NCBI GenBank assembly: GCA_903844735.1
Contig: CAIMUX010000086.1
Location: 9,074 to 73,073, forward strand
DNA: 64,000 nucleotides
Direction: 5' to 3'
From: Candidatus Eiseniibacteriota bacterium
GTDB lineage: Bacteria; Eisenbacteria; RBG-16-71-46; CAIMUX01
The notes beneath the pieces are model-generated. The model worked only from the letters and a program-made list of their open reading frames with translations. It searched no databases and was not told the DNA's origin. Made by a program: the position numbers and the translations under genes. Position 1 is the stretch's first letter. Each line of letters begins with the position of its first letter. Below are positions 2,192 through 61,894 of this stretch, piece by piece.

Positions 2192-3547
2192 ATGCCGGGT
2201 CTCGTGCAGGGATTGGAAATCGCCCGGCGCGCGCTCTTCGCGCACCAAGCCTCGCTTAACGTCACCGGGAACAACATCGCCAACGTGTCTACTCCCGGCT
2301 ATACCAGGCAGGTGGTCGATCTCGTGCCGAGCCCCTCGGAGCGCACGCCCGAAGGGGTGCTCGGCACCGGCGTCGTCATGCAGTCGGTCAAGCGGGCGCG
2401 GGACATCTTCCTCGACATCCAGATCCGCGACGAGATGGGCCTGGCGGGAAAGTGGTCGGCACGGTCTAACATTCTGACCCAGGTGGAAAGCGTCATCAAC
2501 GAACCGTCCGATGATGGCCTCAGCAGCCTTCTGGACGGCTTTTGGGACTCCTGGCTCGATCTCTCCAACAACCCCGAGGATCCGGCCGCTCGCTCCGTGG
2601 TGGTGCAGAGCGGCGTCACCCTTGCCGATGGACTGCGCCAGACGGACTTCCGTCTCCGCCAGATCATGGATGCCGCCGACGCCGACATCGAGCAGCGGGT
2701 GGCCAATCTGAACTCCCTCTTCCAGGAGGCGGCCAACCTGAACGCCCAGATCCGACGCGCGGAGGTGGGCGGCGGCGTCGAATCCAACCTGCGCGATCGG
2801 CGCGACCTGATCCTCGACGAATTGGCGCAGAAGGGCGGCGCGACCAACCTCGTGCGGACCGACGGCACGGTGGTGGTGCGCATGGGAGGTCGTACGGTCG
2901 TCGAGGGAAACAGCTCCGTCCCCCTCGAAGCCCAGCGCTACAACGACGACGGTCGCGTCCGAGTGCGCATCGTCTTCGCGGAGGACAAGACTTCCCCATC
3001 GTTCCTCTCCGGTGAACTGGCGGGCCTGTTGGAGGCGCGGGATCAGGTTCTGCCCGACTTCCTCAGCAAGATGGATCAGATGACGCAGGCGATCACAACG
3101 TCGGTAAACCGCATCCACGAGGCCGGCCCGTCACACCTTCCGTTCTTCCGTGGAGACCGGGCCCAGATCCTCGAGGTGGTTCCGGAGATCGCCGGCGACC
3201 CGAGCCAGGTCAATGCGGGCACCACGGGGGATGCGGGGGACAACGACATCGCGCTCGCGGTGGCGGCCCTGCGCGACGCTCGGGTCATGAGTCGCAGCAC
3301 CGCCTCGATCCCCGACTTCTACCGGAGCGTCGTCGCCGAGATAGGCTCGCTCGGGCAGCAGGCCAAGTTGCTCAGTGACAGCCAGGACAAGGCAGTGCAG
3401 TCCGTCGAAGCGCAGCGGCAATCGGCCATCGGGGTGAACCTCGACGAGGAGCTGACCCGAATGATGACCACCCAAAAGGCGTACGAAGCCGCGGCCCGGC
3501 TCTTCAGCACAGTGAGCACCATGCTCGACACTCTGCTGAAGATGTAG
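2192..3547 (+). CDS. flgK: Flagellar hook-associated protein 1 FlgK
   Basis: N-terminus 'MPGLVQGLEIARRALFAHQASLNVTGNNIANVSTPGYTRQ' and C-terminal 'LTRMMTTQKAYEAAARLFSTVSTMLDTLL' are classic FlgK termini. 451 aa. Confidence 0.9.
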   Translation: MPGLVQGLEIARRALFAHQASLNVTGNNIANVSTPGYTRQVVDLVPSPSERTPEGVLGTGVVMQSVKRARDIFLDIQIRDEMGLAGKWSARSNILTQVESVINEPSDDGLSSLLDGFWDSWLDLSNNPEDPAARSVVVQSGVTLADGLRQTDFRLRQIMDAADADIEQRVANLNSLFQEAANLNAQIRRAEVGGGVESNLRDRRDLILDELAQKGGATNLVRTDGTVVVRMGGRTVVEGNSSVPLEAQRYNDDGRVRVRIVFAEDKTSPSFLSGELAGLLEARDQVLPDFLSKMDQMTQAITTSVNRIHEAGPSHLPFFRGDRAQILEVVPEIAGDPSQVNAGTTGDAGDNDIALAVAALRDARVMSRSTASIPDFYRSVVAEIGSLGQQAKLLSDSQDKAVQSVEAQRQSAIGVNLDEELTRMMTTQKAYEAAARLFSTVSTMLDTLLKM

Positions 3548-3555
3548 GAGAAACG

Positions 3556-4473
3556 ATGCCCACGCAGAGGATTTCCACGAAGACGCTCTATGACGCCATC
3601 GCCTCGTCGATCGGCGCGCGCAGCCAGCGGATCCTCAAACTGCAGTTGTCGGTCGCCGACGGGCGTGCGGTGCGCGCGCCTTCCGACGACCCGGTGCGCG
3701 CCCAGCAGGCGATGTGGTACCGGGAGCAGAAGCGGGAGAGCGAGCAGTACGAGCGGACCCTGCAGTCGGTGACGATTTCGCTGAGCGCCACCGAGAACAC
3801 CCTCAGCAATATTTCCGATGTCATTTCCGAGGCGCGCGATCTGCAGGTGCGCGGGTCCAATGACGCGATGGAAAACGACGCCCGGATCGCCTATGCCGCT
3901 CAGGTCGACCAGGAGCTGGAGCTCTTGCTCAGTCTGGCCAATGACCGCTTCGCCGGGACCTATACTTTCGGCGGGCGCAACAACATGACGGCGCCCTATA
4001 CGGCGGAGCGAGACGCGTCGGGGCGAATCGTGGGGGTGTCGACCAACCCCCGAGGGATCGAGGGGAAGCTCATTCGCCGGGTCGGTCCGGATGTTTTGCT
4101 CACTGTCAACGTCGCCGGGGCCGATCTCTTCGGGAAGGACGGGGCGGCGTTTCAGTCTCTGATCGCCCTGCGCACGGCACTCGAGATGGGCGACGGAGAC
4201 AGGATCCGGGCGATGGCAGCCCCGATGGGAAGCGCGCTCGACCGCGTGGCGAAGGCCAGTTCCGTCCAGGGTGCGTTGTCGGGCCGGGTGGATGCTCTGC
4301 TCGGGAGGGCCGGCCGCGAGCTGATCAGCTATGAGGCCGGCCGGTCGCAGGCGGAGGATCTCGACGTGGCCCAGGCCGTTGTGGACCTCCAACAGGAACA
4401 GGTCGCGCTCCAGGCCGCCTTGAAGTCGGGGGCGCAGATTCTCAATCTGAGCCTGCTGGACTACATCGTGTGA
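3556..4473 (+). CDS. flgL: Flagellar hook-associated protein 3 FlgL
   Basis: Flagellin-like termini ('...[38 protein letters not shown]' and C-terminal '[21 protein letters not shown]'). 305 aa, immediately after flgK. Confidence 0.85.
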
Positions 4474-4963
4474 GGGGGGACAGGATGATCCTGCATTCGA
4501 AGACGCTGGGTAGGCTGGAGGTCGGCGACAGCTCCTTCCTCTACTGTACCGACGGCCTGGTGGGGTTCGAGGAATACAAGAAGTACTACCTCGCCGAAGT
4601 GCCGGAGTACGGCCCCTTCCTCTGGATGATGTCCGTCGAGGAGCCGGACCTCGGGTTCGCCGTGGCCGACCCGCAGCTCTTTTTTCCCGGTCACTACGAG
4701 GTGAGCCTGGGGGAGTGTGATCGCGATGGCCTCGATCTGCAACCGGGGGATACCATCTCGATCTTCGTGATAGTCTCGATCATGGATGGCGGTCGGCGGA
4801 TTACGGCCAACCTCAAAGGCCCGGTGGTTCTCAATCGAGGAACCGGATCTGCCGCCAGATCGTCATTTACAACCCTGCGTACTCGATGCGGCAGCCGTTG
4901 CTGGTGCCGAGCGAAGAACGGATCGCCTTTGCGGAGAACGCCCGCGGACGGGTGGCGGCCTAA
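4470..4963 (+). pseudogene. fliW: Flagellar assembly factor FliW interrupted by an apparent -1 frameshift near 4840-4848 (possible sequencing indel)
   Basis: Frame A gives '[65 protein letters not shown]...[16 protein letters not shown]', then Arg/Ser-rich nonsense. The conserved FliW C-terminus '[38 protein letters not shown]' continues in the -1 frame and ends at TAA 4961-4963. Restoring one G after 'accgg' (4843-4846) gives an intact ~165-aa FliW. Confidence 0.6.
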
Positions 4964-5009
4964 GGGTGATGGAGGGAGCGGCAGGGATCGCCGCTTCGGG
5001 AGGCCCAGC

Positions 5010-5351
5010 ATGCTGATTCTCACAAGGAAGTTCGGGGAGAACATCCGGATTGGGGACAAGATCAAGATCATCATTCTCGATGTGAAGGGCGGCCAAGTGA
5101 AACTGGGGATCGATGCCCCCGCGAACATCACCGTCCACCGCGAGGAGATCTACGAGCGAATCCGTGAGGAAAACCGCCGCGCTTCAGGGATTTCGGCGAA
5201 GGCGCTCCGGGACGTCGCCCACATTTTCAACAAAGGGAAGAGTCAGCGGGCCATCCGCCGGGGCGGGGGCGACGCGCCAACCGTGAGCGAGGTGGACAAC
5301 GGCGGGGACGACGGGGAGGACGACGACGAGGACCAGCAGGACGACCGCTAA
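5010..5351 (+). CDS. csrA: Carbon storage regulator CsrA (flagellin translational repressor, FliW partner) with a long acidic C-terminal extension
   Basis: '[53 protein letters not shown]' is a textbook CsrA core. ATG at 5010 is preceded by GGGAGG. The product is 113 aa, versus 60-75 typical, and ends in '[18 protein letters not shown]'. Confidence 0.85.
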
Positions 5352-5477
5352 GCTTGCTCTCTTTCTCTCCCCTCTCCGTGCGGCCGCCGGGATCCAGCCC
5401 TGGCGGCCGTTTTGCTTCTGCGGTGGGGTCCACCTGTCACGTTGTCTTTCCACTGTCGCTTCGACGGTATCTTTTTC

Positions 5478-5504
5478 TAAAGGTTCCTTCTCGTCACCCG
5501 AAAA
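5478..5504 (+). promoter_or_regulatory. Candidate sigma-28 (FliA) class-III promoter for the flagellin gene
   Basis: 'TAAAG-N15-cCCGAAAA' (ctaaaggttccttctcgtcacccgaaaac) approximates TAAA-N15-GCCGATAA, about 100 nt upstream of the flagellin ATG. Flagellin genes are typically sigma-28 dependent and fliA is present at 56279. Confidence 0.3.
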
Positions 5505-5535: not shown

Positions 5536-5602
5536 ACGCCAAGCCACAGGGTACGGAAACCCGGTCCGCCCACGGGGCGACCAGAACAGGGAGTGATCCG
5601 AG

Positions 5603-6442
5603 ATGGCAACCAGCGACCTGACCAGAATCCGGTCAAACATCCAGGGCATGAACATCCTCTCGACGCTCCGTGACGTGAACAACTCGGTGGCCACCCACCA
5701 GCTGCGTCTCGGCACGGGCCGCCGCATCAACTCGGCCAGCGACGACCCGGCGGGCATGAGCATCGCCACGAAGCTGGACAACCGTAACCGCATCCTATCG
5801 GCGGTCTACGACAACATCGGGCAGGCGAAGAACATGCTGGCGGTCGCGGAGGGCGGCCTGCTCAGCATCAACGACATCCTCGTCCTCTTGAGCGAGAAGA
5901 TCATCAGTTCCGCCAGCGACACTCTGGCCGACGAAGATCGCGGGGCGATCAGCACGCAGTTGGAGTCGATGGTCGCGGAGATCGGCGACATCGCTGAGCA
6001 GACCGCCTTCGGCGGGACAGCCATTCTCAACTCTGAAAAGGTGCTCAATTTCCAGACCGGGGAGACCACGGCGACGACCTACCAGACGCGCAAGTACGAT
6101 GCGGTGTCCCTCGGGCTCTCGAACCTCGTGTCGCTTACTGCTGATACCATCATCAACTCCGAGAACTATCAGGACTTTCTCAGTGAGGTCGGCACTGCTC
6201 TGAGGACGGTGAGCACCGGTCTGACCGGCATCGGGTCGCTGACCAACCGCCTCACGATGAAGGAAGCCTCGATCTCGCTGACGCAGAGCAACACCGAGGC
6301 CGCCTACAGCCGGATCCGCAACGCCGACATGGCCGCGGAGCAGTTGGAGCTGACCAAGATGCAGATCCTGCAGCAGACGGCGACGTCGATGCTGGCGCAA
6401 GCCAACACCAACTCGCAGTCGATCCTGACTCTCTTTAGATAA
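5603..6442 (+). CDS. fliC: Flagellin (short, 279 aa)
   Basis: N-terminus 'MATSDLTRIRSNIQGMNILSTLRDVNNSVATHQLRLGTGRRINSASDDPAGMSIATKL' and C-terminus 'AAEQLELTKMQILQQTATSMLAQANTNSQSILTLFR' are canonical flagellin D0/D1. SD 'cagggag' lies upstream. Confidence 0.9.
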   Translation: MATSDLTRIRSNIQGMNILSTLRDVNNSVATHQLRLGTGRRINSASDDPAGMSIATKLDNRNRILSAVYDNIGQAKNMLAVAEGGLLSINDILVLLSEKIISSASDTLADEDRGAISTQLESMVAEIGDIAEQTAFGGTAILNSEKVLNFQTGETTATTYQTRKYDAVSLGLSNLVSLTADTIINSENYQDFLSEVGTALRTVSTGLTGIGSLTNRLTMKEASISLTQSNTEAAYSRIRNADMAAEQLELTKMQILQQTATSMLAQANTNSQSILTLFR

Positions 6443-10540: not shown

Positions 10541-10570
10541 CTCCCGAAGCCCGAAGCCTCCGAATCTCAG
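10541..10570. repeat. Copy B of the CCGAA-rich / CTCCGAATCTCAG motif
   Basis: 'ctcccgaagcccgaagcctccgaatctcag' lies 45-120 nt upstream of the sensor kinase gene. Confidence 0.5.
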
Positions 10571-10614
10571 AGTGTCATGCCGAGCTTGCGGCTTTCCGCG
10601 GGTTCGGCTAAGAT

Positions 10615-12318
10615 TTGGCCGGCGCCAAGGAAGCGGTGCACCCGGGTGGTCCGGGCTGCGGTCATGGAAGGCCGACCGCTTTGGCGCAGATGGAACCCGC
10701 TATGGATGCCACGGAGCCTCGTCCTCGCCACGGGGAGGACGCCGTCGTATGCCCGGACCCGCTCGCGCGCGAGATCTTTGCGCGGATCCTTGGGACGGTC
10801 GCTGCCTGTCTCTATGCCCGCTTTCCCGACGGCTCCCTGCACCCGGTCCATGCCTCCGGCCTGGAACTCGAACCTCGTGGGGCCTGGACTCACGAACTGA
10901 AATCGGCCGCCCCCTGGGGGGCGGCGCCACCCGGCGCGGTGACGGCGCTGGCCGCGTTGCCGCGCCGCGCCGGCTTGCCTGATCCCGATTCGTCGCTGTG
11001 GCTGCGCCCCCTCCGTTGCGGCCGCGACATCGCCGGCGGATTGCTCCTGCGCGTCGCGGGACGAACCGTTCCCGCGGCCCTCCGCCGACGGCTCGATGAT
11101 CCGGTGCATCTGGGTACCCTGACCGCACTCATCGAGTGGAGTCGTGCCGGGATCGAGCTCGAAGCGCTCCGGGGCTTTCGCGAGGCCGTGTCCTCGGCGC
11201 TTCCGTACGGCGTGCTGGTCGTGGACGGGCTCGGTCGCGTCACATGGACTGGAGGCCGTGCCACCGCGATTCTCGGCGTGAGTGCGGAAGAGGCGGCGGG
11301 CAGCGACTGCGCGCGGATCTTCCGGCCGGTGGGCCTGGAGCTGCACCCGATCCTGGAAGGACTGCGCGGGAGGGTTCACTCCGGCGAGATCGTCCTGGCT
11401 CGTGCCGACGGTGAGGAACTGCCGGTTTCGCTGGAAATGGCGCGGCTGCCCGGGCGAGGCGGGCGTAGTCACGGGTTGGTGGTGCTCTTTGCGGATCTGT
11501 CGGAGGAGCGTGTCTTGGAGGAGACCGCGCGGCAGCGCGACCGCCTGGCCGCGCTCGGCGAATTGTCTGCCGGGGTGGCTCACGAGATCCGCAACCCTCT
11601 GACCGGAATCGCCAACTGCGCGCAAGTCCTGCGGGAAGGGATGGAAGAGGAGGACCCTCGCCATCGCTTTCTTCGCATCATCCTCGACGAGACGGCGCGA
11701 CTGAACCGCATCGTGGAGGGGCTTCTTTGCTACGCCCGGCCGAACCGTCCCGACCTGCGCGACACCGTCATGGAGGAGCTCGTGCGTCACGCCATCGACC
11801 TCGTGCGGTCCGGGCTGGAGGCAAACGGGATTCGCGTCGGCTACAAGCTGGGTGGGCGGATCCCGCGGATCTTCGTGGATCCCGCGCAGGTCGAGCAGGT
11901 GCTGCTCAACCTGCTGCGCAACGCCGAGGAGGCGATGCCCTCCGGAGGCGAAATCGTGGTTGCGATCTCGGTGGTGCGGCGGCGACCCCATCGGCGGCGC
12001 GGCCTGGGGCGGCGGGCCGATGACCGGATGCGGGTGCGACCGCGCGATGACGGCCCGCTGGTGCGATTCGTCTCGGTTCGCGTGGCCGACACCGGACCCG
12101 GCATCCCGCGCGAACTTCTCCCGCGGATCTTCAATCCTTTCTATAGCACGCGGAGCAAGGGAACCGGGCTGGGACTTTCCCTTTCGCAATCGATCGTGCG
12201 AGAGCACGGGGGATTCCTCACGGCCCGCTCGGTGGTAGGCAAAGGAACCGTCTTCCATCTGGATCTACCGGTGGAGAGGAGGCAAGGTGAGCGACGGCAG
12301 GACCAGCGACGCGCTTGA
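10615..12318 (+). CDS. Sensor histidine kinase (PAS/GAF-like N-terminus, HisKA, HATPase), FleS/FlrB/NtrB-type
   Basis: H-box 'LSAGVAHEIRNPLTGI', N-box 'LLNLLRNAEEAM', G-boxes 'VADTGPGIP...GTGLGLSLS'. The start is ambiguous (ATG 10690 is an alternative). Confidence 0.8.
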   Translation: MAGAKEAVHPGGPGCGHGRPTALAQMEPAMDATEPRPRHGEDAVVCPDPLAREIFARILGTVAACLYARFPDGSLHPVHASGLELEPRGAWTHELKSAAPWGAAPPGAVTALAALPRRAGLPDPDSSLWLRPLRCGRDIAGGLLLRVAGRTVPAALRRRLDDPVHLGTLTALIEWSRAGIELEALRGFREAVSSALPYGVLVVDGLGRVTWTGGRATAILGVSAEEAAGSDCARIFRPVGLELHPILEGLRGRVHSGEIVLARADGEELPVSLEMARLPGRGGRSHGLVVLFADLSEERVLEETARQRDRLAALGELSAGVAHEIRNPLTGIANCAQVLREGMEEEDPRHRFLRIILDETARLNRIVEGLLCYARPNRPDLRDTVMEELVRHAIDLVRSGLEANGIRVGYKLGGRIPRIFVDPAQVEQVLLNLLRNAEEAMPSGGEIVVAISVVRRRPHRRRGLGRRADDRMRVRPRDDGPLVRFVSVRVADTGPGIPRELLPRIFNPFYSTRSKGTGLGLSLSQSIVREHGGFLTARSVVGKGTVFHLDLPVERRQGERRQDQRRA

Positions 12319-20535: not shown

Positions 20536-20677
20536 TTCCGGTGCGGCGCGGCTACTCGGGTAGCAGGAAGTCAGAGTGAAAGTCGGCACCCGGATGCGGT
20601 ATCGCTGATCGGCTACCGGATGACCACCCAGCGTACCGTCTGTCGGACCGCCCCCGCCGTGTCGTGGCCGTCCAGCC

Positions 20678-22468
20678 TCACGAAGTAGATCCCCGTCGGG
20701 AGGGACCGGCTGTCGGTCCCGAAGTTGTCCCACTCAGCGTCCAGCTCCCGGGCCGGTATTCCTGCTCGCCGCCGAACGGGTCTGTCAAGCGCCGCCCGCC
20801 CGCGTCGAACAAGGTCAGGCGCAGCGTCGTGCTGCGTCCCACGGCCATCCCGAGCCGCGCCTTCCCCGTGGACGGATTCGGCATCATCCGGCAGCGAAGA
20901 CGATCGTCCGCGGGCAGGCCGCCTGGGCCGGAAGGATCGGGGTCGTCTTCGCTCGGCGCGTCCACGCGGAGATCGACAACGTGCAGCAAGTGGTCACTGG
21001 CGCCGGAATCGGCTGCCTGCAGCCCGCGAGCGGCGAGACTGTCGGCCGACATACCCGACGGGTCGAGGACGAAATGGTTTGCCGGTGACACGGCGGAGTC
21101 GTTGTACACGAGATAATCGATCCGGCCGGGCCAGAATGTGCTCTCGGCGCTGAGCCACGTATAGCAGAGCCGCCTCTCGGTCTGCCGTGAGATTACGTCG
21201 GTGAGCGATCCGCCATCCCAATCGGGAGCGAAGTCGGGTCCGAAGGTCGCGTTGTCGCTGATGTTTCCCGTCAGCAGCGACGTGCGCGTCCCCGATGCGC
21301 CGACGAAGTTGGTGTCGCCCATGAAGAGGATCGCCGCTCCCGGGGGTAAGTCCGGCGATCCGCCCGGGTTCATGGCATCGCGGATGAAGGACAGGATGCG
21401 GTCGATCTCCTCTTGGCGTCCGGCATCGTTGTCGCAGCAATAGAGATGCACATTGATCACCAGAGTCCGCTTGCCGATCGCCGCCTCGGTGTCGAGGCAG
21501 ACCGCGAGGTTGCCATCCAGCGGCCACGATCCGAGCACGGGGTAGCGGCTGACGGTGATGCAGTCGTGGTTTCCGGCGGCGTACCAGGTGCCGGGCAACC
21601 ATGAGGCGACGAGAGCGCGGGTCACCTCCGGCGTGTGGTCATAGATCTCCTGGAAGCTGAGAATATCGGGAGCCACGGCCTGGATCTGTCGCTCGAACTT
21701 CGGCCGGAGGGCACCGTTCCACGGTCTGTCCGAGAGCACGTTCCAAGTCGCGACGCGCAGGTCGGTGGTGAGCCGCCGGGCCAGAGGCAAGGGTGTTTCC
21801 GTGATCGGCGGACCCTGGTCGAGCTCGTAGGAAAGTGTCCATCCCGTGTTCGGGAGGACGTCGCCGCCGGTGTCGGTGTCGCGGAGCAGCACCCGGATGG
21901 TTCTGCCCGCGTCGCCGAGGAACAGCGGATGGGTCCCGTCGGGCAGCGCATCGCGGCGAAAGGCAACCTCGAATGCCGTGCCGCTGAACGTGGGCAGGCC
22001 GATGAAGCCGCAGTCGTTCCAGTGCACCGTGACCTGCATGGCGCCGGAGTAGAAGGTCCCGGACTTGTGGCCCGGGCGCCAGACGAGGTCGGCGCCGATC
22101 CCGTTCACCGGCTGGCCGGTGGCGGCGTTGTTGTCGGTGTCGAGGGCCAGGTTGATGTTGTTCCCGCCGTTCAAGAGCAGATCCGCGCCGACCTCGAAGC
22201 GGATATAGAGGTGCCGCGGGTCGTCGGCGAGCCAGAGACGGCGGAGGTCGATGCCACTCGCGCCCGCGTCTCCGGACGCGTCGGTCCAGGCTGGTGCGGC
22301 GGCGCCCCAGTCCTCGAAGAAGCCGTCGAGGACGACCGGAAGCCTTTCGGCGCGGGCGGTGGACGCGATTCCGAGGACGGCCATGAGAGCCAGGAAGGTG
22401 GCCGCGGGCCCCCGGCGGGGAACGGGGCGGACGAGTCGGAACGGACATAAATGGGGGGTCGGATGCAT
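20678..22468 (-). CDS. Secreted endonuclease/exonuclease/phosphatase (EEP) family protein with T9SS-type (Por) C-terminal sorting domain; C-terminus frameshifted
   Basis: Signal peptide 'FLALMAVLGIASTARA'. EEP motifs 'ATWNVLSD', 'ILSFQEI', 'FMGDTNF', 'DHLLHVVDL'. C-terminal 'MPNPSTGKARLGMAV...LRLTLFDAGGRRLTDPFGGEQEYRPGS' matches the first half of a T9SS CTD. The second half ('AEWDNFGTDSRSLPTGIYFVRLDGHDTAGAVRQTVRWVVIR*', ending at 20613) continues in another frame. This implies a 1-nt indel in the CCCGGG run at 20747-20752. The only confident reverse-strand gene. Confidence 0.6.
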   Translation of the reverse strand: MHPTPHLCPFRLVRPVPRRGPAATFLALMAVLGIASTARAERLPVVLDGFFEDWGAAAPAWTDASGDAGASGIDLRRLWLADDPRHLYIRFEVGADLLLNGGNNINLALDTDNNAATGQPVNGIGADLVWRPGHKSGTFYSGAMQVTVHWNDCGFIGLPTFSGTAFEVAFRRDALPDGTHPLFLGDAGRTIRVLLRDTDTGGDVLPNTGWTLSYELDQGPPITETPLPLARRLTTDLRVATWNVLSDRPWNGALRPKFERQIQAVAPDILSFQEIYDHTPEVTRALVASWLPGTWYAAGNHDCITVSRYPVLGSWPLDGNLAVCLDTEAAIGKRTLVINVHLYCCDNDAGRQEEIDRILSFIRDAMNPGGSPDLPPGAAILFMGDTNFVGASGTRTSLLTGNISDNATFGPDFAPDWDGGSLTDVISRQTERRLCYTWLSAESTFWPGRIDYLVYNDSAVSPANHFVLDPSGMSADSLAARGLQAADSGASDHLLHVVDLRVDAPSEDDPDPSGPGGLPADDRLRCRMMPNPSTGKARLGMAVGRSTTLRLTLFDAGGRRLTDPFGGEQEYRPGSWTLSGTTSGPTAGPSRRGSTS

Positions 22469-29920: not shown

Positions 29921-30972
29921 GCGGGGAGAATGCCGTGGACAATGCAGCCAAGAAGTTAGCCACCGCCCACAGTCTCTCGGGGCCCCAGAAGGCCGCGCTG
30001 GTCATCGTGACCATGGGCCGTGAGGCCGCGGCCGCGGTCTTCCGCAGCATGCGGCAGGAGGACATGGAGGCCCTCACCGCGCAGGTGGCCCGTTTGGGCG
30101 ACGTCGAACCCGAGACGCGCGACGCCATCCTCGGGGAGTTTGACGAAATGATGATGGCCAACTCGTACCTCACGGAAGGCGGATTGGAGGTGGCCAGGGA
30201 GATCCTCTACCAGGCGCTTGGGCAGGATCGAGCCATGGAGATTCTGGAGAAGATCCAACAGACCGAGGCGAGCGTCGGAGCGTTCCAGAAACTGAAGAAC
30301 GTAGACGAGAAGCAGTTGGTCAACCTCATCCAGGGAGAGCATCCCCAGACCATTTCGCTCATTCTCGGGCACCTCAAGCCGAAGCAAGCGGCGGGCGTGC
30401 TTACCGCGCTGCCTGCCGAGGTGCAGCCCGACGTGATCTCGCGCATGGCCACCATGGGTCAGATCTCGCCCGAGGCTGTGGCGGAGATCGAGGGGGTGCT
30501 GAAGCAGCACATCTCGACCATGACTCGGTCCACGGACAGCCAGTCGGGCGGCGTCAACGTGGTGGCGGAGATCCTGAACCTCGTCGACCGTTCCACCGAG
30601 AAGAACATTCTCGGCGTGATGGAGCGGGAAAACCCCGATCTTGCCATCCAGATCAAGAACCTGATGTTCGTCTTCGAGGACGTTCTGCATCTCGGCGACC
30701 GGGAGATCCAGCGGGTGCTTAAGGACGTTGACTCCCGTGACCTCGCCGTGGCCCTCAAGCTGGCATCCGAGGACGTGAAGACCAAGATCTTCGGCAATCT
30801 TTCGCAGCGTGCCGCCGAGATGCTCAAGGACGAGCTGGACTTCCTCGGACCGGTGCGCTTGAAGAACGTGGAAGACGCCCAGCGCCGCATCGTCGACACC
30901 GTGCGGAAACTGGACGAAGGCGGTGAGATTCACATCAGCCGTGGCGGCGCGGGGGAGGAGCTCATTGTCTAG
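29899..30972 (+). CDS. fliG: Flagellar motor switch protein FliG
   Basis: 'LSGPQKAALVIVTMGREAAAAVFRSMRQEDMEALTAQVARL', '...MFVFEDVLHLGDREIQRVLKDVDSRDLAVALKLASEDVKTKIFGNLSQRAAEMLKDELDFLGPVRLKNVEDAQRRI'. The start is TTG 29899 or GTG 29935. Confidence 0.9.
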   Translation: MAARRVLSGENAVDNAAKKLATAHSLSGPQKAALVIVTMGREAAAAVFRSMRQEDMEALTAQVARLGDVEPETRDAILGEFDEMMMANSYLTEGGLEVAREILYQALGQDRAMEILEKIQQTEASVGAFQKLKNVDEKQLVNLIQGEHPQTISLILGHLKPKQAAGVLTALPAEVQPDVISRMATMGQISPEAVAEIEGVLKQHISTMTRSTDSQSGGVNVVAEILNLVDRSTEKNILGVMERENPDLAIQIKNLMFVFEDVLHLGDREIQRVLKDVDSRDLAVALKLASEDVKTKIFGNLSQRAAEMLKDELDFLGPVRLKNVEDAQRRIVDTVRKLDEGGEIHISRGGAGEELIV

Positions 30973-34164: not shown

Positions 34165-37100
34165 ATGAATCCGCTGCCGTCTACGTTGACGCCGGCCCTG
34201 CCGGGTGCGGCTGCCGATCCGGGACTGCGGGGACGATTCCCCGAGGCTCCCGACGGCGGCGGCGCGCGCGTCCAAGACCGGGACGGGTTCGAGGCTGCAC
34301 TGCAGGCGGCGAGCGTCGCCGGTTCGTTCGTTCTCACTCGCGGGCCCGCGTTGTTTTCGCGGGTGAAGCAAATGGAAGACACGCTGGAGACCGCGGCGCC
34401 GGCGACGGCAAGCAATGTCGAACCGAGGGCGTTTCTAGCGCCGATGGAGCCCCTTTCTTCTTTGGGTGCCCCGAGGACCCTTGGCTCGAGCGGAGCGCCC
34501 GGAGGTCCGGCGACCGGGACCGATGCCGAGGTCGTCGAGGTAGCGGGCGCTGCGACGGTATCTGGAACGGTCTCGGTGCCTCATGGCTCGTCGGGAGTGG
34601 CCGGGTCCTCATCCACTGTCTTGACCTCGCCGGCGGCATTGACCTCGCCCGCGGCATTGACCTCGCCGGCGGCATTGACCTCGCCCGCGGCATTGACCTC
34701 GCCCGCGGCATTGACCTCGCCCGCGGCATTGACCTCGCCGGCCGCCGTGCGCACGCCGCGCATCGCCGCCTCCACGGTCGGTGCGGCGGGTGCGCTCCCG
34801 ACGGCCCGGGGTGCGCGCGCGACCCGGGTCGTGGATGGCTCTCCCTCGGCAGGGAACGTCTCGAACGGCGAGCGGTTGGGCGACGTCGGGGGACGGATCA
34901 TCGAGGCCTCCGGACGTGTTGTCGGCCTCTTTGACCTGGAGGACGGCGGGGCGCTGCCGGCGGCTGGTTCGGTCCCCGCTGGTGTAGGCGCGGGAATCGC
35001 CACGCCGGGGGAGGCGACCTCCGGAGCTGTTCCGCGTGCCGCCGGCGTAGTGGCGGGCGCGAAGAGCGCCCCCGCCGGCGATGCGGTTGTGTCCATGGCT
35101 CCTGGATCCGGGATCGCTTCCAGTCCGTCGTCCGCGAGGGTGTCCGAAACGACGAGGTCCGGCGCGGCGATGACCTCTCTCTCCAGCTCGGCTTCCGGTT
35201 CCGCAGGAAGTCGGGCGATGCCGGTCTCCAACCCGGTCTTGGCTGTCGGCATGGTTGCCGGCCCTTCGGTGGAGGGTGCGCCACCAACCCCGGTGTCGGT
35301 CCCCGCTTCCGGTTCGAATGCGGGTCAGACGAGGGGTGGCGCTGCCAAGGGCGCGGCGCCGGTACCGGTTTCCCCATCGGGCTCGGTTAGTGATCAGACG
35401 ACAATCGGTCCTCTGCCGGTCTCCGCGCGCTCTGCCGCACGGGCTTCCACACTAGGTTCGGCTCTCGGGCAAATGACCAATGCCCCGATGACAGCCTCCG
35501 TGCCAGGACCCGCACCAACACCCCTACCGCCCTCCGCGACAGCCTTCGGACGCGCCGAGGAATCGGGCTCGACTGGCGGAGAGAGAGTGCGGAGTGCGAC
35601 GACAGCCCCGGTAGCGGTTGCGATGCCGGTATCGACCTGCACGTCGACTCCTGAACCGTTGGTGAGTGGCCCGGGGCCGGGCGCCGCGCCGGTTTCCGCG
35701 CCGGGCTCTGCGCCGGGCTCTGCGCCGTGCTCCGCGTCGGTCTCAGCGCCGCTCCCCGCGCCGGTCTCCGTACCGGTTTCCCAGCCGATCTCTGTGCCGG
35801 CCTCCGCGCCGGTTCCCGTATCAGGCTCAACTCCTGATCAGACAGCCCGGAGTGCGGCGCCGGCCTTGGCCTTCGACTCGGCTGCCGGTCAAATGATCAG
35901 CGGCCCGATCCCGGTCTCTGTGCCGGCCTCGGCGCCGATCCGCTCGCCGGTTTCCGCGTCGGTCTCAGCGCCGGTCCCCGCGCCGGCGTCCAGGTCGGTC
36001 TCCGCGCCGATCTCCGTACCGATCTCCGTACCGGTCTCCGTACCGGTTTCCCAGCCGATCTCTGTGCCGGCCTCCGCGCCAGTTTCCGTATCAGGCTCAA
36101 CTCCTGATCAGACAGCCCGGAGTGCGGCGCCGGCCTTGGCGTTCGACTCGGCTGCCGGTCAAATGATCAGCGGCCCGATCCCGGTCTCTGTGCCGGCCTC
36201 GGCGCCGATCCGCTCGCCGGTTTCCGCGTCGGTCTCCGCGCCGGTCCCCGCGCCGGCTTCCAGGTCGGTCTCCGCGCCGGTCTTCGTACCGGTTTCCCAT
36301 CCGATCTCTGTGCCTGCCTCCGCGTCAGTTCCCGTATCAGGCTCAACTCCTGATCAGACAGCCCGGAGTGCGGCGCCGGCCTTGGCGTTCGACTCGGCTG
36401 CCGGTCAACGAATCAGCGGTCCGATGCCGGTCTCTGTGCCATCCTCCGCGCCGATCCCCTCGCCGATCCCCGGGCCGGCTTTCGCTTCGGTCTCAGTGCC
36501 GATCCCTGCGCCGATCCCCGCGCCAGTCTCCCAGCCGATCTCTGTGCCGGCCTCTGCGCCAGTCCCCATATCAGACTCAACTTTTGATCAGACAGTCCGG
36601 AGTGCGGCGCCGGTCTTGGCATTCGAACCTGCTCCCGGTCAGTTGGCCGGCGACCCGATGCCGGTTTCCGTGCCGGCCTCTGCGGCGGTCTCCTTGCCGG
36701 TCTTGGCAGGGATTCCCACGCGAACTTCCGTGCTAGCCTCGGCATCGATCCCCGCGCGGTCTTCCTTGTCAGCCTCGGTGCCGACTTCCTTGCCGGATTC
36801 CACGCCGAGTTCGGTGGCGGCCTCCGCACCGAACTCACGATTGGTTCCCCCATCCGGCTCGGCTCCTGCTCAGACGGTGCAGAGCGTGGCGCCGACTCCG
36901 GTGTCGACTTCGATACCGGCCTCTGCGTCCGATTCGATTTCTGTTCCGATGACGGGCGGCCCGCTGCCGGTGTCCGCGACGGCCTCTCCACCGGCTTCCG
37001 CCTCGGTTTTCGCGCCGGCCTTCGCGTCGTCCGCCGCGCCGACTTCCGTGCCGAACCCGGTGTCGATTTCATCGCGATCTTCGGTGGCGCACTCAACTCC

Positions 37101-38463
37101 TGATCAGACAACGTCGAGTGCGACGATAGCCCCGGCGGCCGTTTCGGTTCCGATTTCGGCGTCAGGCTCGATTCCCGCGCAGATGACGGGCATCGGGACT
37201 CCGGTCTCCGTGCCGGTCTCCGTGCCGATCACAGCGCCAAGTGCGGTTCCCGGTCAGACAGTGGAGAGTTCGGCGAAGGTTCCGGTGGCTGTTTCGATGC
37301 CTGCGTCCAAGGTAACTCGCGGGCACACTGCGCGAAGTGCTGTGACGGCCCCGGCCGTCGGCGCGACGCCGGCCCCCGCGTACGGTTCGGGCCCCGATCT
37401 GTTGACGAGCGGCCCGATGCAGGCAGCTGGACCGGTCTTCGCGCCGTCCGCCGTGCCGGCATCCGTCCGGGCCTCCGTGCCGGCCCCTGAGCCGTTTTCT
37501 GCGCCGGCCGCCGAGGTCAAAGCGGTGTTCGCGCAGGGTGGGTCCGGTACAGGGAGCGCGCCGGCCGAAGCAACAGGCCCAGGCGTGACGCTGAGCCGTG
37601 GCGAACGCCCAGCGAGTCTGCCCACCGCGATTAACGTGGCTCGGACAGTGCGGTCTTCCCAAGCTTCTGTCGGGACCAGCGAGGCGACCCCTGTGTCCGA
37701 GAACCCCCTGTTCCCGAACCCGATGCCTCAGGTCCGTGCCGAAGTCTCCTCGGTGGGGGAACCCAGCGCCGGCGGTGCATCTTTGACCCCGGGCTCTTCG
37801 GCGATAGCCGCGGCAGTGCATCTACCGGCGATTCAGACCTCCACGCCGAGCGCGTCGACGGCTCCTCTGGGGCGAGTGCTCGAGTTGGCCAACCCGGTTG
37901 CGCCCCCGAATCTACCGACGGCTGTGCCCCACGCCATCAAGCTCGCCCTGCGCGAGGGGGTCGGCGAGGTGCGGATCCGCCTCTGGCCACCGGAGCTGGG
38001 TGGCATCCTGGTTCGGCTGCGGGTCAACGGGACCGAGGTCACCGCGCGGATCGAGGCCGAGCGGACGGACGTGCGGGGAATGCTTGAGTCGATGCGATCG
38101 GACCTCGGGCGGGGGATGCAGGAGGCCGGGCTGAAACTGACGCGATTCGAGATCGGTCCGGCACGCCCGAACGAATCATTGCGGGCCTTGGAGACAGTGA
38201 TCCCGGCGAGCGCGGCCTCGCAGGGCGGTGGGGGCGGGACCCCGGATCGCCAGGGTCAAGGCGCCCCGGCGGGAAATCTCGGGACGTCCGGCGGCTTCAA
38301 TCAGGGCGATCCCGGCCCACGCGGCGAGCACGCCGCCGGCGGACGCGCCGGAAGCGGGCGGGAAGGAACGGGCCTAGCGCCCGAGAATCGTAGGGAGAGA
38401 AGCGAGGCGGGCCTTGTGGTTCGCCATGTGCGCGGCGAAGCGGCGATTGACGCCTGGGCCTGA
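34165..38463 (+). CDS. fliK: Giant hook-length control protein FliK (1432 aa) with expanded repetitive Pro/Ala/Ser/Val-rich ruler region
   Basis: C-terminal '[66 protein letters not shown]' is the Flg_hook / FliK C-terminal domain. It lies between ylxF-like and flgD as in Bacillus. The central roughly 1000 aa is low-complexity tandem repeat. Confidence 0.75.
34621..34746 (+). repeat. 18-nt perfect microsatellite x7 inside fliK encoding (ALTSPA)7
   Basis: 'ttgacctcgccggcggca / ttgacctcgcccgcggca' alternate seven times. The encoded peptide is '[18 protein letters not shown]...'. Confidence 0.85.
35771..36700 (+). repeat. Tandem array of ~240-270-nt near-identical repeats (about 3.5 copies) inside fliK; more diverged copies extend from ~35390 to ~37240
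   Basis: Units begin at 35771, 36041, 36287 and ~36527 ('taccggtttcccagccgatctctgtgccggcctccgcgcc...'). Encoded unit is '...[78 protein letters not shown]...'. Confidence 0.8.
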
Positions 38464-45119: not shown

Positions 45120-45893
45120 ATGATGCCGCTGCCGTCGCCGGACCGGATCGAGACCTTTCTGCTGGTCTTTGTTCGCTGCCTCACCTTCTGGTCGATCGGC
45201 CCCCTGCTGGCCGATCGGAAGGTGCCGGTGCAGGTAAAAGTCCTGGGCGGGCTGGTCACGGCGATTGCGGTCTTCTCCTCGGTCGACACAACGCGCTGGA
45301 TCAAGACCGACTCGCTCCTCGTGCTGGCCTCGCTGGTGGCGCGAGAGGTCCTCATGGGCGCCGCCCTCGGGCTGGTGGCTTCGCTGGTCTTCCTTGCTGT
45401 GCGCATGGCGGGGAGTCTTCTCGGCGTGCAGATGGGCTTCTCCATCGCCAGCGTGATGGACCCGCAGACCCAGACCGAGATGTCGCTCCTGTCGGAGGTC
45501 CAAGAACTGCTGGCGGTGTTCCTCTTCCTCCTGGTGGACGGGCACCACCGGCTCTTTCAGGCCTTGGCGGTTTCTTTAGACCGAGTCCCCCCGGGGGCCA
45601 TCGGCGACCCCGGGATCCTCGTGGGGGCTCTGGTTCCGCTGATCGGGGCGATGTTCGGAATGATCATCCAGGTCGGGGCGCCGATCCTGGGCGCCATGTT
45701 TCTGACCGATGCCGCCTTGGGATTTGTCGCCCGGGCGGTTCCCCAAATGAACGTCTTCATCGTGGGGATCCCGGTCAAGATCGCGGCCGGAATGGCGTTA
45801 CTTGTTGTCACGGCGCCGCTCTTCTCTCGTCTGCTCCTCGTCCAGTTCAGCCGGATGGACCAGCAACTGCTCACTGTCTTGCGTGCCATGTAG
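45120..45893 (+). CDS. fliR: Flagellar export apparatus protein FliR
   Basis: 257-aa polytopic protein 'MMPLPSPDRIETFLLVFVRCLTFWSIGPLL...GAPILGAMFLTDAALGFVARAVPQMNVFIVGIPVKIAAGMALLVVTAP'. Confidence 0.85.
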   Translation: MMPLPSPDRIETFLLVFVRCLTFWSIGPLLADRKVPVQVKVLGGLVTAIAVFSSVDTTRWIKTDSLLVLASLVAREVLMGAALGLVASLVFLAVRMAGSLLGVQMGFSIASVMDPQTQTEMSLLSEVQELLAVFLFLLVDGHHRLFQALAVSLDRVPPGAIGDPGILVGALVPLIGAMFGMIIQVGAPILGAMFLTDAALGFVARAVPQMNVFIVGIPVKIAAGMALLVVTAPLFSRLLLVQFSRMDQQLLTVLRAM

Positions 45894-46180
45894 GTTATGG
45901 ATCGACTTCTGTTGACCGAGACCCACGGGCGGGCCCGACGGCAGCTTCCGGGACCGGTCTCCGTTGCTCATCGACCGGAGTTCGGCGGTCTCGACGCCCG
46001 TGCGGGCGGTGGTGACGTCGGGCGCGACCTACGACCCGTGTTGGCGGGATAGAACGACCAGCGAGAACTGGGTCTTCGTCACGGCGGATCGAATAGGTCG
46101 TCGAAGGTGCCGCGCATTCCCTTGCTGGTCGGCCTGTTGCGGGTAATCGGCCAACAGGAATCGATACATAGCCTGCTTCG

Positions 46181-46262: not shown

Positions 46263-47717
46263 ATGCCCGACCCTTCCGATCCAAAGCGTCCCCGACTCGT
46301 CTTTCCCGGCTCCGATGCCGATTCCGCCCCCGCCCGCCGCATCGTGTCTCCCGGCGCCGACGCGGCGGCGGCACCCGGACCCGAGGCTCCGGCACCGACG
46401 CGGCGGCCCGGTCTCATCCTCCCGCCCGGCGCGGGACGCGAGGTGCCCGAAGACCTGCCCGAGTACCCGCGCCTGCGACCGCTCGGACTCGCGCGCGTGA
46501 GTGACGGCCGACGTGAAATGCTGCTGGTGAGCGACCCGACGGGTGTGATCCAGGGCCAGCCGGCCCTGTCGATGGAGGCGCTGCCGATGCTGCAGTTGCT
46601 CGATGGCACGACGTCGCTGACCGACATCACGAGCACGCTCATGCGTGGCAGTAAGGATCTGCGCGTCGCGAGTTTGGTGCGCGATTTCGTTGCCCGACTC
46701 GACCAGATGCTGCTCCTCGATTCGCCTCGATTCCACCAGGCGCTGCAGATGCTGCGTGACCGGTACCATCAGCTCGAGATCCGCCCCGCGGCGCTCGAGA
46801 ACCAAGCCTATCCGGGCCAGAGAGCCGAGCTGGAGGCGTTTCTCGACGATCACTTTGCCGAGGCCGCGGCGATGCGCGAGCGCGCCGTACCGCCGGCCGC
46901 CGCCCAGCCGACCGACGCGCGATCGGCTACCGCACCGGCGGCGCCGCCGCGCGCGATCCTGTCGCCGCACCTCGACCCGCGCCGGGCGGGTGCGGTCATC
47001 GCGCGGGCGATGGCGGAGATCGGCCCCCGGCAGGCCCGGCCGCTGCGCGTCGTCATCTTCGGGACCGGCCACTCGTTGCTGGACGACCTGTTCGCTCTCA
47101 CGCGCAAGCACTTCGAGACTCCGCTCGGCAAGGCTCGCTGCGACACCGCGTTCGTCGACCGCGTCGCCTCGCGCCTCGGCGAGTCCGCCTACCGCGGCGA
47201 GTTGGCGCATCGCGACGAGCATTCGATCGAGTTTCAGGTGATCTACCTCCTGCGACTGCTCAAGGAACATCCGTTCACGATCGTGCCGATCCTGTGCGGC
47301 GGCTTCCACTCGCTTCTCGCGGAGGGCCAAACGGCGCGCGAGGCGCCCGAGTTCGAACGACTGATCGAGGCCGTGCGGGAGGCCGAGCGCGAGCTGAGCG
47401 GTCGCACGCTCTACATCGCCGGTGTCGACTTCTCCCACGTCGGACCCCGCTTCGGCCACCCGCCGATCGACGCGCGCGTGAAAGACGAGACCGAAGCGGT
47501 CGATCGCGCGGGTCTCACCGCGGCGCTCGCGGGCGACGCCGAAGGCTGGTTCCGGGCGATCGCCGCGCAGGACGACCGTACGAACATCTGCGGTTTCGCG
47601 CCGACGTACGCTATGCTGCGCTGTGCGGATGTCACCGATGGACGATTGCTCCATTACGAACAGTGCGACGAGCCGGACGGCTCCACGGTTACGGTCGCCG
47701 CCGCGGTCTGGGGGTAG
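46263..47717 (+). CDS. Fusion protein: N-terminal PqqD-like RiPP-recognition-element (RRE) domain + C-terminal MEMO1-family (AmmeMemoRadiSam system protein B-like) domain
   Basis: Residues ~70-160 'LRPLGLARVSDGRREMLLVSDPTGVIQGQPALSMEALPMLQLLDGTTSLTDITSTLMRGSKDLRVASLVRDFVARLDQMLLLD' fit the PqqD pattern (xLNxtaxxIwxlLDGxxtlxeIxxxLxxxyxxdxxxxxxDvxxFlxxLxxxgLL). The C-terminal 300 aa carry MEMO1 blocks 'SPHLDPRRAGAV', 'VIFGTGHS', 'DEHSIEFQVIYL', 'IVPILCGG', 'VDFSHVGPRFG', 'NICGFAPTYAML'. Confidence 0.6.
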   Translation: MPDPSDPKRPRLVFPGSDADSAPARRIVSPGADAAAAPGPEAPAPTRRPGLILPPGAGREVPEDLPEYPRLRPLGLARVSDGRREMLLVSDPTGVIQGQPALSMEALPMLQLLDGTTSLTDITSTLMRGSKDLRVASLVRDFVARLDQMLLLDSPRFHQALQMLRDRYHQLEIRPAALENQAYPGQRAELEAFLDDHFAEAAAMRERAVPPAAAQPTDARSATAPAAPPRAILSPHLDPRRAGAVIARAMAEIGPRQARPLRVVIFGTGHSLLDDLFALTRKHFETPLGKARCDTAFVDRVASRLGESAYRGELAHRDEHSIEFQVIYLLRLLKEHPFTIVPILCGGFHSLLAEGQTAREAPEFERLIEAVREAERELSGRTLYIAGVDFSHVGPRFGHPPIDARVKDETEAVDRAGLTAALAGDAEGWFRAIAAQDDRTNICGFAPTYAMLRCADVTDGRLLHYEQCDEPDGSTVTVAAAVWG

Positions 47718-48205: not shown

Positions 48206-49381
48206 ATGTCATCCCGGATTCGTTCCCTGATCGCCTTAGCCCTGTCGATGCTTCTCCTGGCCGGAGGCCAGGCTTTGGCTCGCAAACCGAAGGCATCCGC
48301 GTCACCGAATCCGCTCCCGGCCGCGGTCCTGGGGGACGGACGCATCGCAATCCCCGCCTCCATGACCCCGGCTCTCCCGTTCGAGATCAACGCTCCCGGC
48401 AGCTACTGTCTGGTCGGGAACCGCCATTGCGCCGAGGACGGCATCCGTATCAACGCCGACGACGTCACCATCGACCTTTCGGGATTCACGCTCGCCGGGC
48501 CCGACTCCGGCGGTTCCGTCGGAATCCTCATGAAAGGCCGCAAGAATGTGGAGGTCAAGAACGGAACAGTCCGGGACTTCGGCAATCGCGGCATCTTCGA
48601 CAAGAACGAGGGGGGCATGGCGCAAGGCAAACGGATCATCGGCGTGCGTGTCGTCTCGAACGGAGGCTGCGGCATCTGCCTGGGCGGAGACGGCAACCTC
48701 ATCCGTGACTGCTACGTCGCGGACAACAAGGGGACCGGCGCCTGTGTCGAGCGGACGATTGTGGAGAGGAGCGTCTTCGTCAACAACACCACCGGCGGGA
48801 TCGCCTGCGGCAACTACAGCCTCGTCGCTGGAAACCTCGTCACGAAAACCGAAAAGGCCGGGATCTTTGCCCGCAACGGCTGCACCATCAGGGACAACAC
48901 GGTCTGCGAGGCGGGCAACACGGGGATCTACGGCGATTATGGCTGCCTGATCGACGGTAACGTTGCCTGCGAAAACAACCAGGCGAACATGCCCTGGGCC
49001 TATGCCGGCATCAAGACGGTGGGCGACTGCATCCTTCGCAACAATCTCACGCGGGGTAACTTGCAGAACAACATCTGGGTGATCCGCTCGGGGAACGTCG
49101 TCGAGGACAACCTCGCCACCGCCCCGGCCGACACTCTCGGGAACGGCTACGCCTTCGGTAACAAGTCCAACTACTTCGCCAACAACAAGGCTTCGGGCAA
49201 CCAGACCGATTTCGTTGGCGAGCTACCCGAAGGCCCGGGCGACGGTGGTGGAAACCTCGCTTTGGAGCACTACGTGCCGCTTCCTCTGCCTGCTCCTTCC
49301 CCTCCGCCGCCGACTCCTGTTGCCGATACACCCAGCGGCGGCGTGCCCCCCGCCGGCCGAACGAAAGGCCCCGACAAGTAG
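48206..49381 (+). CDS. Secreted right-handed parallel beta-helix repeat protein (Cys-rich, pectin-lyase-fold-like) with Pro-rich C-terminal tail
   Basis: Signal peptide 'MSSRIRSLIALALSMLLLAGGQALA'. Repeated 'GIxxxNxxxVxIxNxTV.., GNLIRDCYVADNKGTGACVE, NNTTGGIACGNYSLVAGNLV, CEAGNTGIYGDYGCLIDGNV, NNLTRGNLQNNIWV' units typical of PbH1 beta-helix coils. Ends 'PLPLPAPSPPPPTPVADTPSGGVPPAGRTKGPDK'. RBS AAGAGGAGG. Confidence 0.6.
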   Translation: MSSRIRSLIALALSMLLLAGGQALARKPKASASPNPLPAAVLGDGRIAIPASMTPALPFEINAPGSYCLVGNRHCAEDGIRINADDVTIDLSGFTLAGPDSGGSVGILMKGRKNVEVKNGTVRDFGNRGIFDKNEGGMAQGKRIIGVRVVSNGGCGICLGGDGNLIRDCYVADNKGTGACVERTIVERSVFVNNTTGGIACGNYSLVAGNLVTKTEKAGIFARNGCTIRDNTVCEAGNTGIYGDYGCLIDGNVACENNQANMPWAYAGIKTVGDCILRNNLTRGNLQNNIWVIRSGNVVEDNLATAPADTLGNGYAFGNKSNYFANNKASGNQTDFVGELPEGPGDGGGNLALEHYVPLPLPAPSPPPPTPVADTPSGGVPPAGRTKGPDK

Positions 49382-50084
49382 CAGGGCCCACAGGTGATGC
49401 CGAGATGCCCTCGGACCTGCTTCAAGGCCCGGCCCTTCATGGATGCGATCACCCGGGATCGCCGCCCCCAGGAGCGTCGTCATGGTCACCGTCAACATCC
49501 ATGAAGCCAGACCCGGTTCTCGTAGCTGGTCGATTCCGCAGTCAAAGGCGAAGCGTATGTGATAACGAAGGCGGGTGGGCCGCTCGTGAAGGTGACGGCG
49601 CTGGACGCCCATGCGGCACCGCGGCGGCTGGACTTCCTCGCCGGCGAGATCGCCATGCCCGACGATGTCGACCGCATGGGCGAAGCAGAAATCGAAGCTC
49701 TGTTCGGGAGCGGTTCGTCAAGTCCGCCGCGTTCGCGTGGAAGTCCGCCATCGGCACATGCTCGATCGAGAGGTCGAGAAGCAGTCGCACCGCTCGGTCG
49801 AACCGTCTGTTCGCCCAGTGGGCCTTCGCCCGTCCGAAGGGGTCCGCGAGTTCCCGGTCCAGACCCTGCTCCAGCAGGAAGCGGTTCGAGTGATCGAGAT
49901 CGCCCAGCGGCGCGACACCATCGAGGCGCAACCTCCGGGGCAGGATCCGGCTTGCACGCCGCGGCACGGAGGGGCAGGTCGTCCTTACGATGGTGGCGAG
50001 ATCGCCGGTAACGACCAGTTCCCTGCGAACGGCGTCTCATTGTGGGGGGCTGGCGCCTTCTGCCGCTTGTCGGGGGCCTCGGTT

Positions 50085-50345
50085 CCTATCGTCGAAGCAA
50101 GGTTCGGGATGATGATCCAGGTCAGACCCCGATCCCGGGCGCCATGTTTCTGACCGATGCCGCCTTGGGATTTGTCGCCCGGGCAATCTCCCAGATGGAC
50201 GTGCTTATCGTGGGGATCCCTGTGCAGACCGCGGCTGGAATGACCTAACTCGTTGTCACGGATCAACGTGCCTCCAGTCTCGTCCCGCTCCGGTTCGGCC
50301 GAATGGCCCAGCAACGGCTTACCGTTTTGCGTGGCATGTAGGTTG
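50085..50345 (+). pseudogene. Diverged duplicate of the fliR 3' end (~260 bp, ~80% identity to 45637-45897) with premature TAA; remnant flanking the insertion
   Basis: Direct alignment: 'gcgccatgtttctgaccgatgccgccttgggatttgtcgcccgggc' is identical in both copies. Both copies end '...ttgcgtg[c/g]catgtaggtt'. Copy 2 reads '...PIPGAMFLTDAALGFVARAISQMDVLIVGIPVQTAAGMT*', in frame with the FliR C-terminus. Confidence 0.6.
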
Positions 50346-61438: not shown

Positions 61439-61894
61439 ATGGACGCGCCTGACAACGAGGCCCGAAGACCCCGCATCCTCATCGTCGACGATGAGCCTGA
61501 ACTCCTGGTCATCCTCCGGGAGTTCCTAGGGGGGGAGTTCGAGCTGGAGGAAGCCGCCACCGGGTCCGAGGCGTTGGAGATGCTGGCGCGAGGCGCCTTC
61601 GCCCTGGTGCTGACCGACATCAACCTGCCGGGAGCCGACGGGATCGCCGTGCTGCGGGCCGCAAAGGCGGCCGATCCCGAGACCGAAGTCATCATGCTGA
61701 CCGGAAACGCCTCGACGATGACCGCCATCGAGGCACTCCGCGACGGCGCCTACGACTATCTGGCGAAGCCGTTCGATCTGCTCGAACTGGATCAGTCTCT
61801 GCGCCGCGCGCTGGAGGGGGCGGCGCCTGCGGGGCGAGAACCGACGGTTCGTGCAGCAGTTGCAGGTGGCCAACCTGGAACTGCAAACCAGTGA
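61439..61894 (+). CDS. Receiver (REC) domain, apparently the frameshifted N-terminal part of a REC-GAF-histidine kinase hybrid
   Basis: 'RILIVDDEPELLVILREFL...ALVLTDINLPGADGIAVLRAAK...VIMLTGNASTMTAIEALRDGAYDYLAKPFDLLELDQSLRRALEG'. The typical post-receiver linker 'LRGENRRFVQQLQVANLELQTSEEALRR' continues in the +1 frame, which is the kinase ORF. Confidence 0.6.
   Translation: MDAPDNEARRPRILIVDDEPELLVILREFLGGEFELEEAATGSEALEMLARGAFALVLTDINLPGADGIAVLRAAKAADPETEVIMLTGNASTMTAIEALRDGAYDYLAKPFDLLELDQSLRRALEGAAPAGREPTVRAAVAGGQPGTANQ

Follow-up and report, generated by a model that had tools for sequence, protein, structure and literature searches.

A one-base deletion that splits fliW in the deposited sequence of an uncultured bacterium is probably a consensus error

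In Bacillus subtilis and its relatives, CsrA binds a GGA over the Shine-Dalgarno sequence and blocks the translation of flagellin, FliW binds CsrA and relieves the block, and cytoplasmic flagellin binds FliW and thereby restores it (PMC6529632, PMC8523840, PMC7652899). Genes can also appear interrupted in sequence records, and long-read metagenome assemblies are known to retain indels that shift reading frames (PMC9262707; bioRxiv 10.1101/2021.08.23.457338). Both subjects meet in the DNA described here. The window, which means the whole stretch of 64,000 nucleotides analysed, comes from an uncultured bacterium with a G+C content of 67% and contains fliW and csrA next to a flagellin gene. In the deposited sequence, fliW is split by the absence of one base.

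The genes flgK, flgL, fliW, csrA, flagellin, fliS and fliD are arranged in the canonical late-flagellar order, and the region is syntenic in a 79%-identical species (contig L005). The genes flgK (2192-3547, + strand) and flgL (3556-4473, + strand) were recognised as open reading frames and by the Pfam families of identical genes in relatives; the stop codon of flgL lies 11 nt before the fliW ATG. The identity of fliW proposed in the first-pass annotation is borne out by this gene order and by the match to Pfam FliW. The csrA gene (5010-5351, + strand) encodes a protein of 113 aa, with a CsrA domain at residues 1-53 and a 60-aa tail with an acidic run at its end, and relatives are annotated with the same 113-aa product. 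Structural sequence matches of CsrA include PDB 1Y00 and chain D of 5DMB. Within the part encoding the tail (5169-5351), at about 5305, the 12-nt unit GGACGACGGGGA occurs once more in the 99%-identical strains L001 and L002, giving a product of 117 aa versus 113 aa. The genes fliW and csrA do not overlap and are separated by a spacer of 46 nt, and csrA has its own Shine-Dalgarno sequence GGGAGG at 4998-5003, six bases before the ATG at 5010. Hence, csrA does follow immediately downstream of fliW, as had been noted, but the translational coupling of the two genes claimed along with it is unsupported because of the spacer and the separate ribosome-binding site. A terminator-like hairpin with a T-tract, predicted by a consensus scan at 5380-5410 (+ strand), closes the flgK-flgL-fliW-csrA unit. 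The flagellin gene (5603-6442, + strand) is an open reading frame for which Flagellin_N and Flagellin_C are found in relatives, and CsrA would be expected to act on it and FliW to bind its product. Upstream of it, reading by eye revealed a sigma-28-like sequence TAAAGGTT-N11-CCCGAAAA at 5478-5504 and two CsrA-like motifs, ACAGGGT at 5546-5552 and ACAGGGA at 5586-5592, the second of which overlaps the Shine-Dalgarno sequence.

The locus thus has fliW adjoining a csrA with a C-terminal extension, in a late flagellar operon next to flagellin, and it resembles the flagellin-FliW-CsrA module of Bacillus subtilis, Geobacillus and Clostridioides (5DMB; PMC6529632, PMC8523840) in several respects. The Pfam scores are 102.6 bits for FliW and 82 bits for CsrA, and the two proteins match chains A and D of 5DMB with E values of 1.3e-17 and 1.2e-15, respectively. 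The gene order and the extension of CsrA beyond its RNA-binding core are also shared, as is a motif, ACAGGGA, lying over the flagellin Shine-Dalgarno sequence. In contrast to the described systems, fliW in this record carries a deletion of 1 nt, the CsrA tail is long (60 aa) with an acidic run at the end, and the host is an uncultured bacterium of high G+C content. By analogy with the module described, a FliW of 159 aa would bind and antagonise CsrA in the real organism, and cytoplasmic flagellin would sequester FliW, after which the freed CsrA would block flagellin translation at a GGA site over the Shine-Dalgarno sequence. Binding of CsrA to the flagellin leader is predicted, with ACAGGGA at 5586-5592 as the sole sequence hint.

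In translation, the fliW reading frame begins at the ATG at 4485, which is also the start in relatives, runs to codon 117 (AAT, 4833-4835) and is then completed in the -1 frame to the TAA at 4961-4963. The N-terminal part (4485-4835, + strand) comprises 117 codons, M1-N117, in the frame of the start codon, with NLKGPVVLN as its last residues; it matches positions 4-104 of the Pfam FliW model and is identical to residues 1-117 of the intact protein of relatives (P0001). Past codon 117, the translation of this frame bears no resemblance to FliW. The C-terminal part (4836-4963, + strand) is read in the -1 frame, with codons from 4838 (RNRICRQ...RVAA), and supplies model positions 105-122. The first-pass annotation had correctly placed the two parts in different frames, the second of them at -1, but had given the N-terminal part 125 residues rather than 117. 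The joined protein matches Pfam FliW (PF02623) with 102.6 bits, well above the curated cut-off of 25, over model positions 4-122 of 122, whereas the uninterrupted frame as deposited matches positions 4-104 only. In the sequence match to 5DMB chain A, the last conserved strands of FliW follow directly after the break. Consequently, fliW is genuinely split in the deposited sequence, and the whole Pfam model is covered by the joined protein only: the window contains no single uninterrupted frame for FliW (break at 4835/4836), while the gene is intact in every relative examined.

After the deletion, the remainder of fliW, the 46-nt spacer and csrA lie in one stop-free frame. This yields a chimeric open reading frame (4485-5351, + strand) of 288 aa from the ATG at 4485, or 293 aa from an upstream GTG, which consists of FliW residues 1-117, 58 out-of-frame or intergenic codons and CsrA, and within which both Pfam FliW and Pfam CsrA match. 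The apparent linker is the out-of-frame FliW C-terminus followed by the intergenic spacer, so the chimera is a side effect of the deletion, not a fusion protein by design. The computed chance of such an open, in-phase read-through in DNA of 67% G+C is about 9%. The exact 288-aa sequence is present in the public protein collection for a single contig of 94,981 bp only (P0041), where it is named 'carbon storage regulator'. This means that the deletion is part of the deposited record; the in-phase junction with csrA would have led gene callers to this false product.

The site and identity of the missing base were established by DNA alignment with four independent contigs (L001-L004): these have CTCAATACGAGG at the place of CTCAATCGAGG in the window, which is short of one A between 4835 and 4836 (+ strand). 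Intact relatives have CTC AAT ACG AGG, encoding L N T R, and the missing A is the first base of the Thr118 codon (CTCAAT[A]CGAGG), a single, non-repeated base outside any homopolymer. A one-base lesion as the cause of the interruption had been rightly suspected, but the base proposed, a G within a G/C run near 4845, disagrees with the alignment. The base is likewise present in L005, the 79%-identical species, within CTCAAC[A]CGCGG.

The intact protein of the relatives (P0001, 159 aa) is identical to the repaired FliW of the window except for the junction residue, which had been guessed in the repair. It is encoded on 5 independent contigs that represent several read sets and assemblers. Two of the comparisons are particularly close: the alignments of the window with contigs L003 (6,250 bp) and L004 (1,776 bp) each contain 0 mismatches and 1 gap, which is the fliW base. 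All 38 FliW homologues found are full length, and LNTRNR is present across the break in 6/6 retrieved homologues, down to 58% identity. The nearest named homologues belong to Candidatus Eisenbacteria MAGs and are 58-59% identical. The intact FliW was also used to scan 185,579 species-representative genomes; this returned one locus, from a different species (79% aa identity), with the gene intact. Neither allele of the break site was matched when JGI metagenome contigs were searched for the exact patterns. The comparison of the orthologous region, which the first-pass annotation had recommended, therefore revealed relatives without the interruption and favours an error in the record.

In order to compare the rest of the window, independent contigs with exactly the same neighbouring proteins were aligned with it base by base. 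A frame survey based on GC3 is too blunt at this G+C content, and the direct DNA comparison was used instead. It covered 62,272 of the 64,000 bases, with a repeat region at 34651-36378 left out; between 57.9 and 64 kb the sole comparator was L010, which derives from a slightly different strain and has 20 mismatches. Exactly 3 window-specific indels were found in 62.3 kb, each of 1 nt, or about 1 per 21 kb. Interior substitutions relative to the closest contigs numbered 0-4 in about 60 kb, and the few remaining mismatches lie mostly at contig ends. Contig L007 aligns over 10,856 bp with 0 mismatches and 1 gap, and contigs L011, L024, L025 and L028 match the window with 100% identity.

The first of the three indels is the missing A of fliW at 4835/4836 (AAT[A]CGA, not a repeat). 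The second, between 20734 and 20735, removes the G of CACT[G]CAG, likewise outside a repeat, in a gene of the Exo_endo_phos family (20613-22468, - strand), the product of which is 596 aa here and 618 aa in four independent contigs. A one-base frame break in this gene had been noticed before, at a C/G run at 20747-20752; the break exists, but the alignment places it at the non-repeated base and rules out a shift at the CCCGGG sequence. The third indel is an extra G in the run at 61816-61820, just as had been described for 61815-61830: the run has five G in the window and four in the one relative with DNA there; the intact allele reads GGAGGGGC. It splits a REC-GAF-HisKA-HATPase hybrid kinase of 586 aa (61439-63200, + strand) into products of 151 aa and 449 aa. 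The broken products of the three genes (288 aa; 596 aa; 151 + 449 aa) are on record for the one 94,981-bp contig only, and intact versions of all three are found on several contigs.

Two further observations concern the kinase. In a ~90%-identical relative, a JGI contig of 2,826 bp encodes a 449-aa kinase with the same GTG start (P0060, VQQLQ...), which corresponds to window positions 61851-63200; this start could reflect the same upstream split in an independent assembly or a contig-end effect. A metagenome scan with the intact kinase (P0056) was swamped by generic receiver and kinase matches, the best of which was 36% identical.

The fliW split is thus probably a one-base consensus or assembly error in this deposited contig, and the organism itself would have an ordinary, intact fliW-csrA pair. 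The gap is absent from every other assembly of the same organism, which makes a consensus error the most likely origin and biology a less likely one, and it is accompanied by isolated indels nearly without substitutions. Since the indels are as many as the substitutions, all break frames and all fall on a single contig, the pattern looks like consensus error and not like divergence under selection. The suggestion that a single-base error is the likely cause therefore stands, but a systematic homopolymer problem is not borne out. Non-repeated bases are affected in two of the three cases, and among 588 homopolymer runs of at least 4 nt in the compared sequence, including 130 G/C runs of at least 5, only one is discrepant. 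The indels are sparse and sporadic. A methylation-motif error was also considered and discarded, the three indel contexts having no common motif when checked by eye.

The kind of assembly may be read from the contig itself. All short-read contigs end within 34651-36378, a region of 1.7 kb with tandem repeats of 12 nt and 270 nt, and the window spans it; the contig of the window also crosses all other break points of the short-read assemblies. Because this 95-kb contig passes every such point, repeats included, it suggests an incompletely polished long-read or hybrid assembly. It is similar to the split genes described in long-read and metagenome assemblies (PMC9262707; 10.1101/2021.08.23.457338) in that isolated 1-nt indels interrupt sequence that is identical elsewhere, gene calling yields split or fused genes, and the contig is far longer than the short-read ones and bridges their repeats. 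It differs from them in that only one of the three indels lies in a homopolymer and in the low density of about 1 per 21 kb. Long-read errors usually concentrate in homopolymers, so the two indels that lie elsewhere speak against an error, and if the contig were of short-read origin, single-base deletions at non-repeated bases would be less expected.

Several side observations were made at the break points and among the other flagellar genes. The repeat region lies in an open frame at 34165-38463 (+ strand) of 1,432 codons, the C-terminal end of which is a FliK C-terminal (Flg_hook) domain; its repeats (34621-37485) comprise 12-nt proline-rich units and a 270-bp unit repeated twice with 97% identity. 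The gene callers of relatives report only its last 256 aa, and it is possibly a giant repetitive hook-length protein. Contig ends of all short-read assemblies coincide at 10542-10950, 30354-30418, 46695-46753 and 50411-50465, with mismatch clusters at their tips, which suggests strain-variable junctions in the population. The fliR gene (45120-45893) contains a G-run at 45618-45622, which has five G in the window and in Logan contig L017, giving an intact fliR of 257 aa. In the BUCK21-1 scaffold (L018) the run has six G and only an 80-aa FliR fragment is called; the same 80-aa fragment is found at the protein level for a contig of ERZ1426741. Either these other assemblies are in error at the G-run or its length is truly polymorphic. 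The 3' end of fliR also has a decayed copy, about 80% identical to 45619-45896 and with indels and an internal stop, which is located at 50072-50344, just upstream of flhB (50409-51494). The gap between fliR and flhB is about 4.5 kb and holds a Memo-family gene (46263-47717) and a gene for a beta-helix protein (48206-49381); the junction looks like one split by an old insertion or duplication.

The main alternative, which we consider unlikely, is a genuine loss of function: the deletion would have arisen very recently and become fixed in the sampled population. FliW would then lack its last 42 residues and be joined via 58 nonsense codons to CsrA, and the CsrA made from its own start would, having no antagonist, repress flagellin translation, so that the strain would be poorly motile or non-motile. 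The deposited sequence does have the deletion, two annotation pipelines accepted it, and the base concerned is non-repeated, unlike the classic context of an error. In the literature, fliW mutants of both Bacillus and Clostridioides survive and have less flagellin (PMC6529632, PMC8523840). Against this, the allele without the A is found on one contig and the intact gene on 5, and the other ~40 flagellar genes of the window are intact, so that there is no sign of motility decay.

The other two lesions can be read in the same way. All three fall in regulatory or secreted functions and none in core genes; the kinase is located beside a GGDEF/HDOD cluster, and the second gene encodes a secreted protein of a nuclease/phosphatase family. 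In the broadest form of the mutation reading, the sampled strain has no functional FliW, carries a FliW(1-117)-linker-CsrA chimera together with unantagonised CsrA, and has recently shut down flagellin synthesis, while the frameshifts in the kinase and the secreted protein belong to the same fast adaptive or degenerative episode. This account, including its extension to the other two genes, is quite doubtful. Bacterial mutation spectra favour substitutions over indels by about 10:1; real indels are found mainly in runs, and within genes selection acts against them. The three frameshifts here stand against 0-4 substitutions in ~60 kb of otherwise identical DNA.

Some of the indel polymorphism may nevertheless be real, as the fliR run differs in length among the other assemblies; the short-read assemblies of the same population have G6 or G5 there, hence G-run length may vary in the population. 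In Campylobacter, the flagellar genes flgR, flgS and flhA are phase-variable and have poly-G tracts. As in those genes, where 1-nt changes switch off flagellar or regulatory functions, two of the indels among the assemblies compared (61816-61820 and the fliR run at 45618-45622) are in G-runs. In contrast to them, the fliW lesion is outside any repeat, and the G-runs here are 4-6 nt long, shorter than the tracts known to phase-vary.

A purposeful decoding of the split, by a programmed -1 ribosomal frameshift giving full-length FliW or as a natural FliW-CsrA fusion, is very improbable: the C-terminal part does lie in the -1 frame and the zero frame does run stop-free and in phase into csrA, but neither CTC AAT CGA GGA nor the stretch 4828-4840 holds a slippery X XXY YYZ heptamer, a slipped product would still lack Thr118, the residue present in 6/6 retrieved homologues, relatives at 99-100% DNA identity and the 79%-identical species have the gene in a single frame and thus nothing conserved to recode, and the linker of a supposed fusion is out-of-frame FliW sequence and spacer, with a chance of about 9%, as given above, of being open and in phase. 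With neither a slippery heptamer nor two-frame conservation in relatives, the programmed frameshift was excluded, and the natural fusion was rejected on account of its linker.

The value of the finding is mainly one of curation. The public record at present holds a false 288-aa 'carbon storage regulator' and no FliW, a truncated Exo_endo_phos protein and a hybrid kinase in two pieces. If frames are broken at this rate, about 1 indel per 21 kb, throughout a genome of a few megabases, the broken genes would number on the order of 100-250, and such breakage would distort estimates of gene content, pseudogenes and completeness for a little-known lineage. A true deletion would make this uncultured bacterium a natural fliW knockout, a case of modest interest. 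When the missing A is put back, fliW and csrA form a textbook module, and nothing in the locus suggests a new regulatory mechanism.
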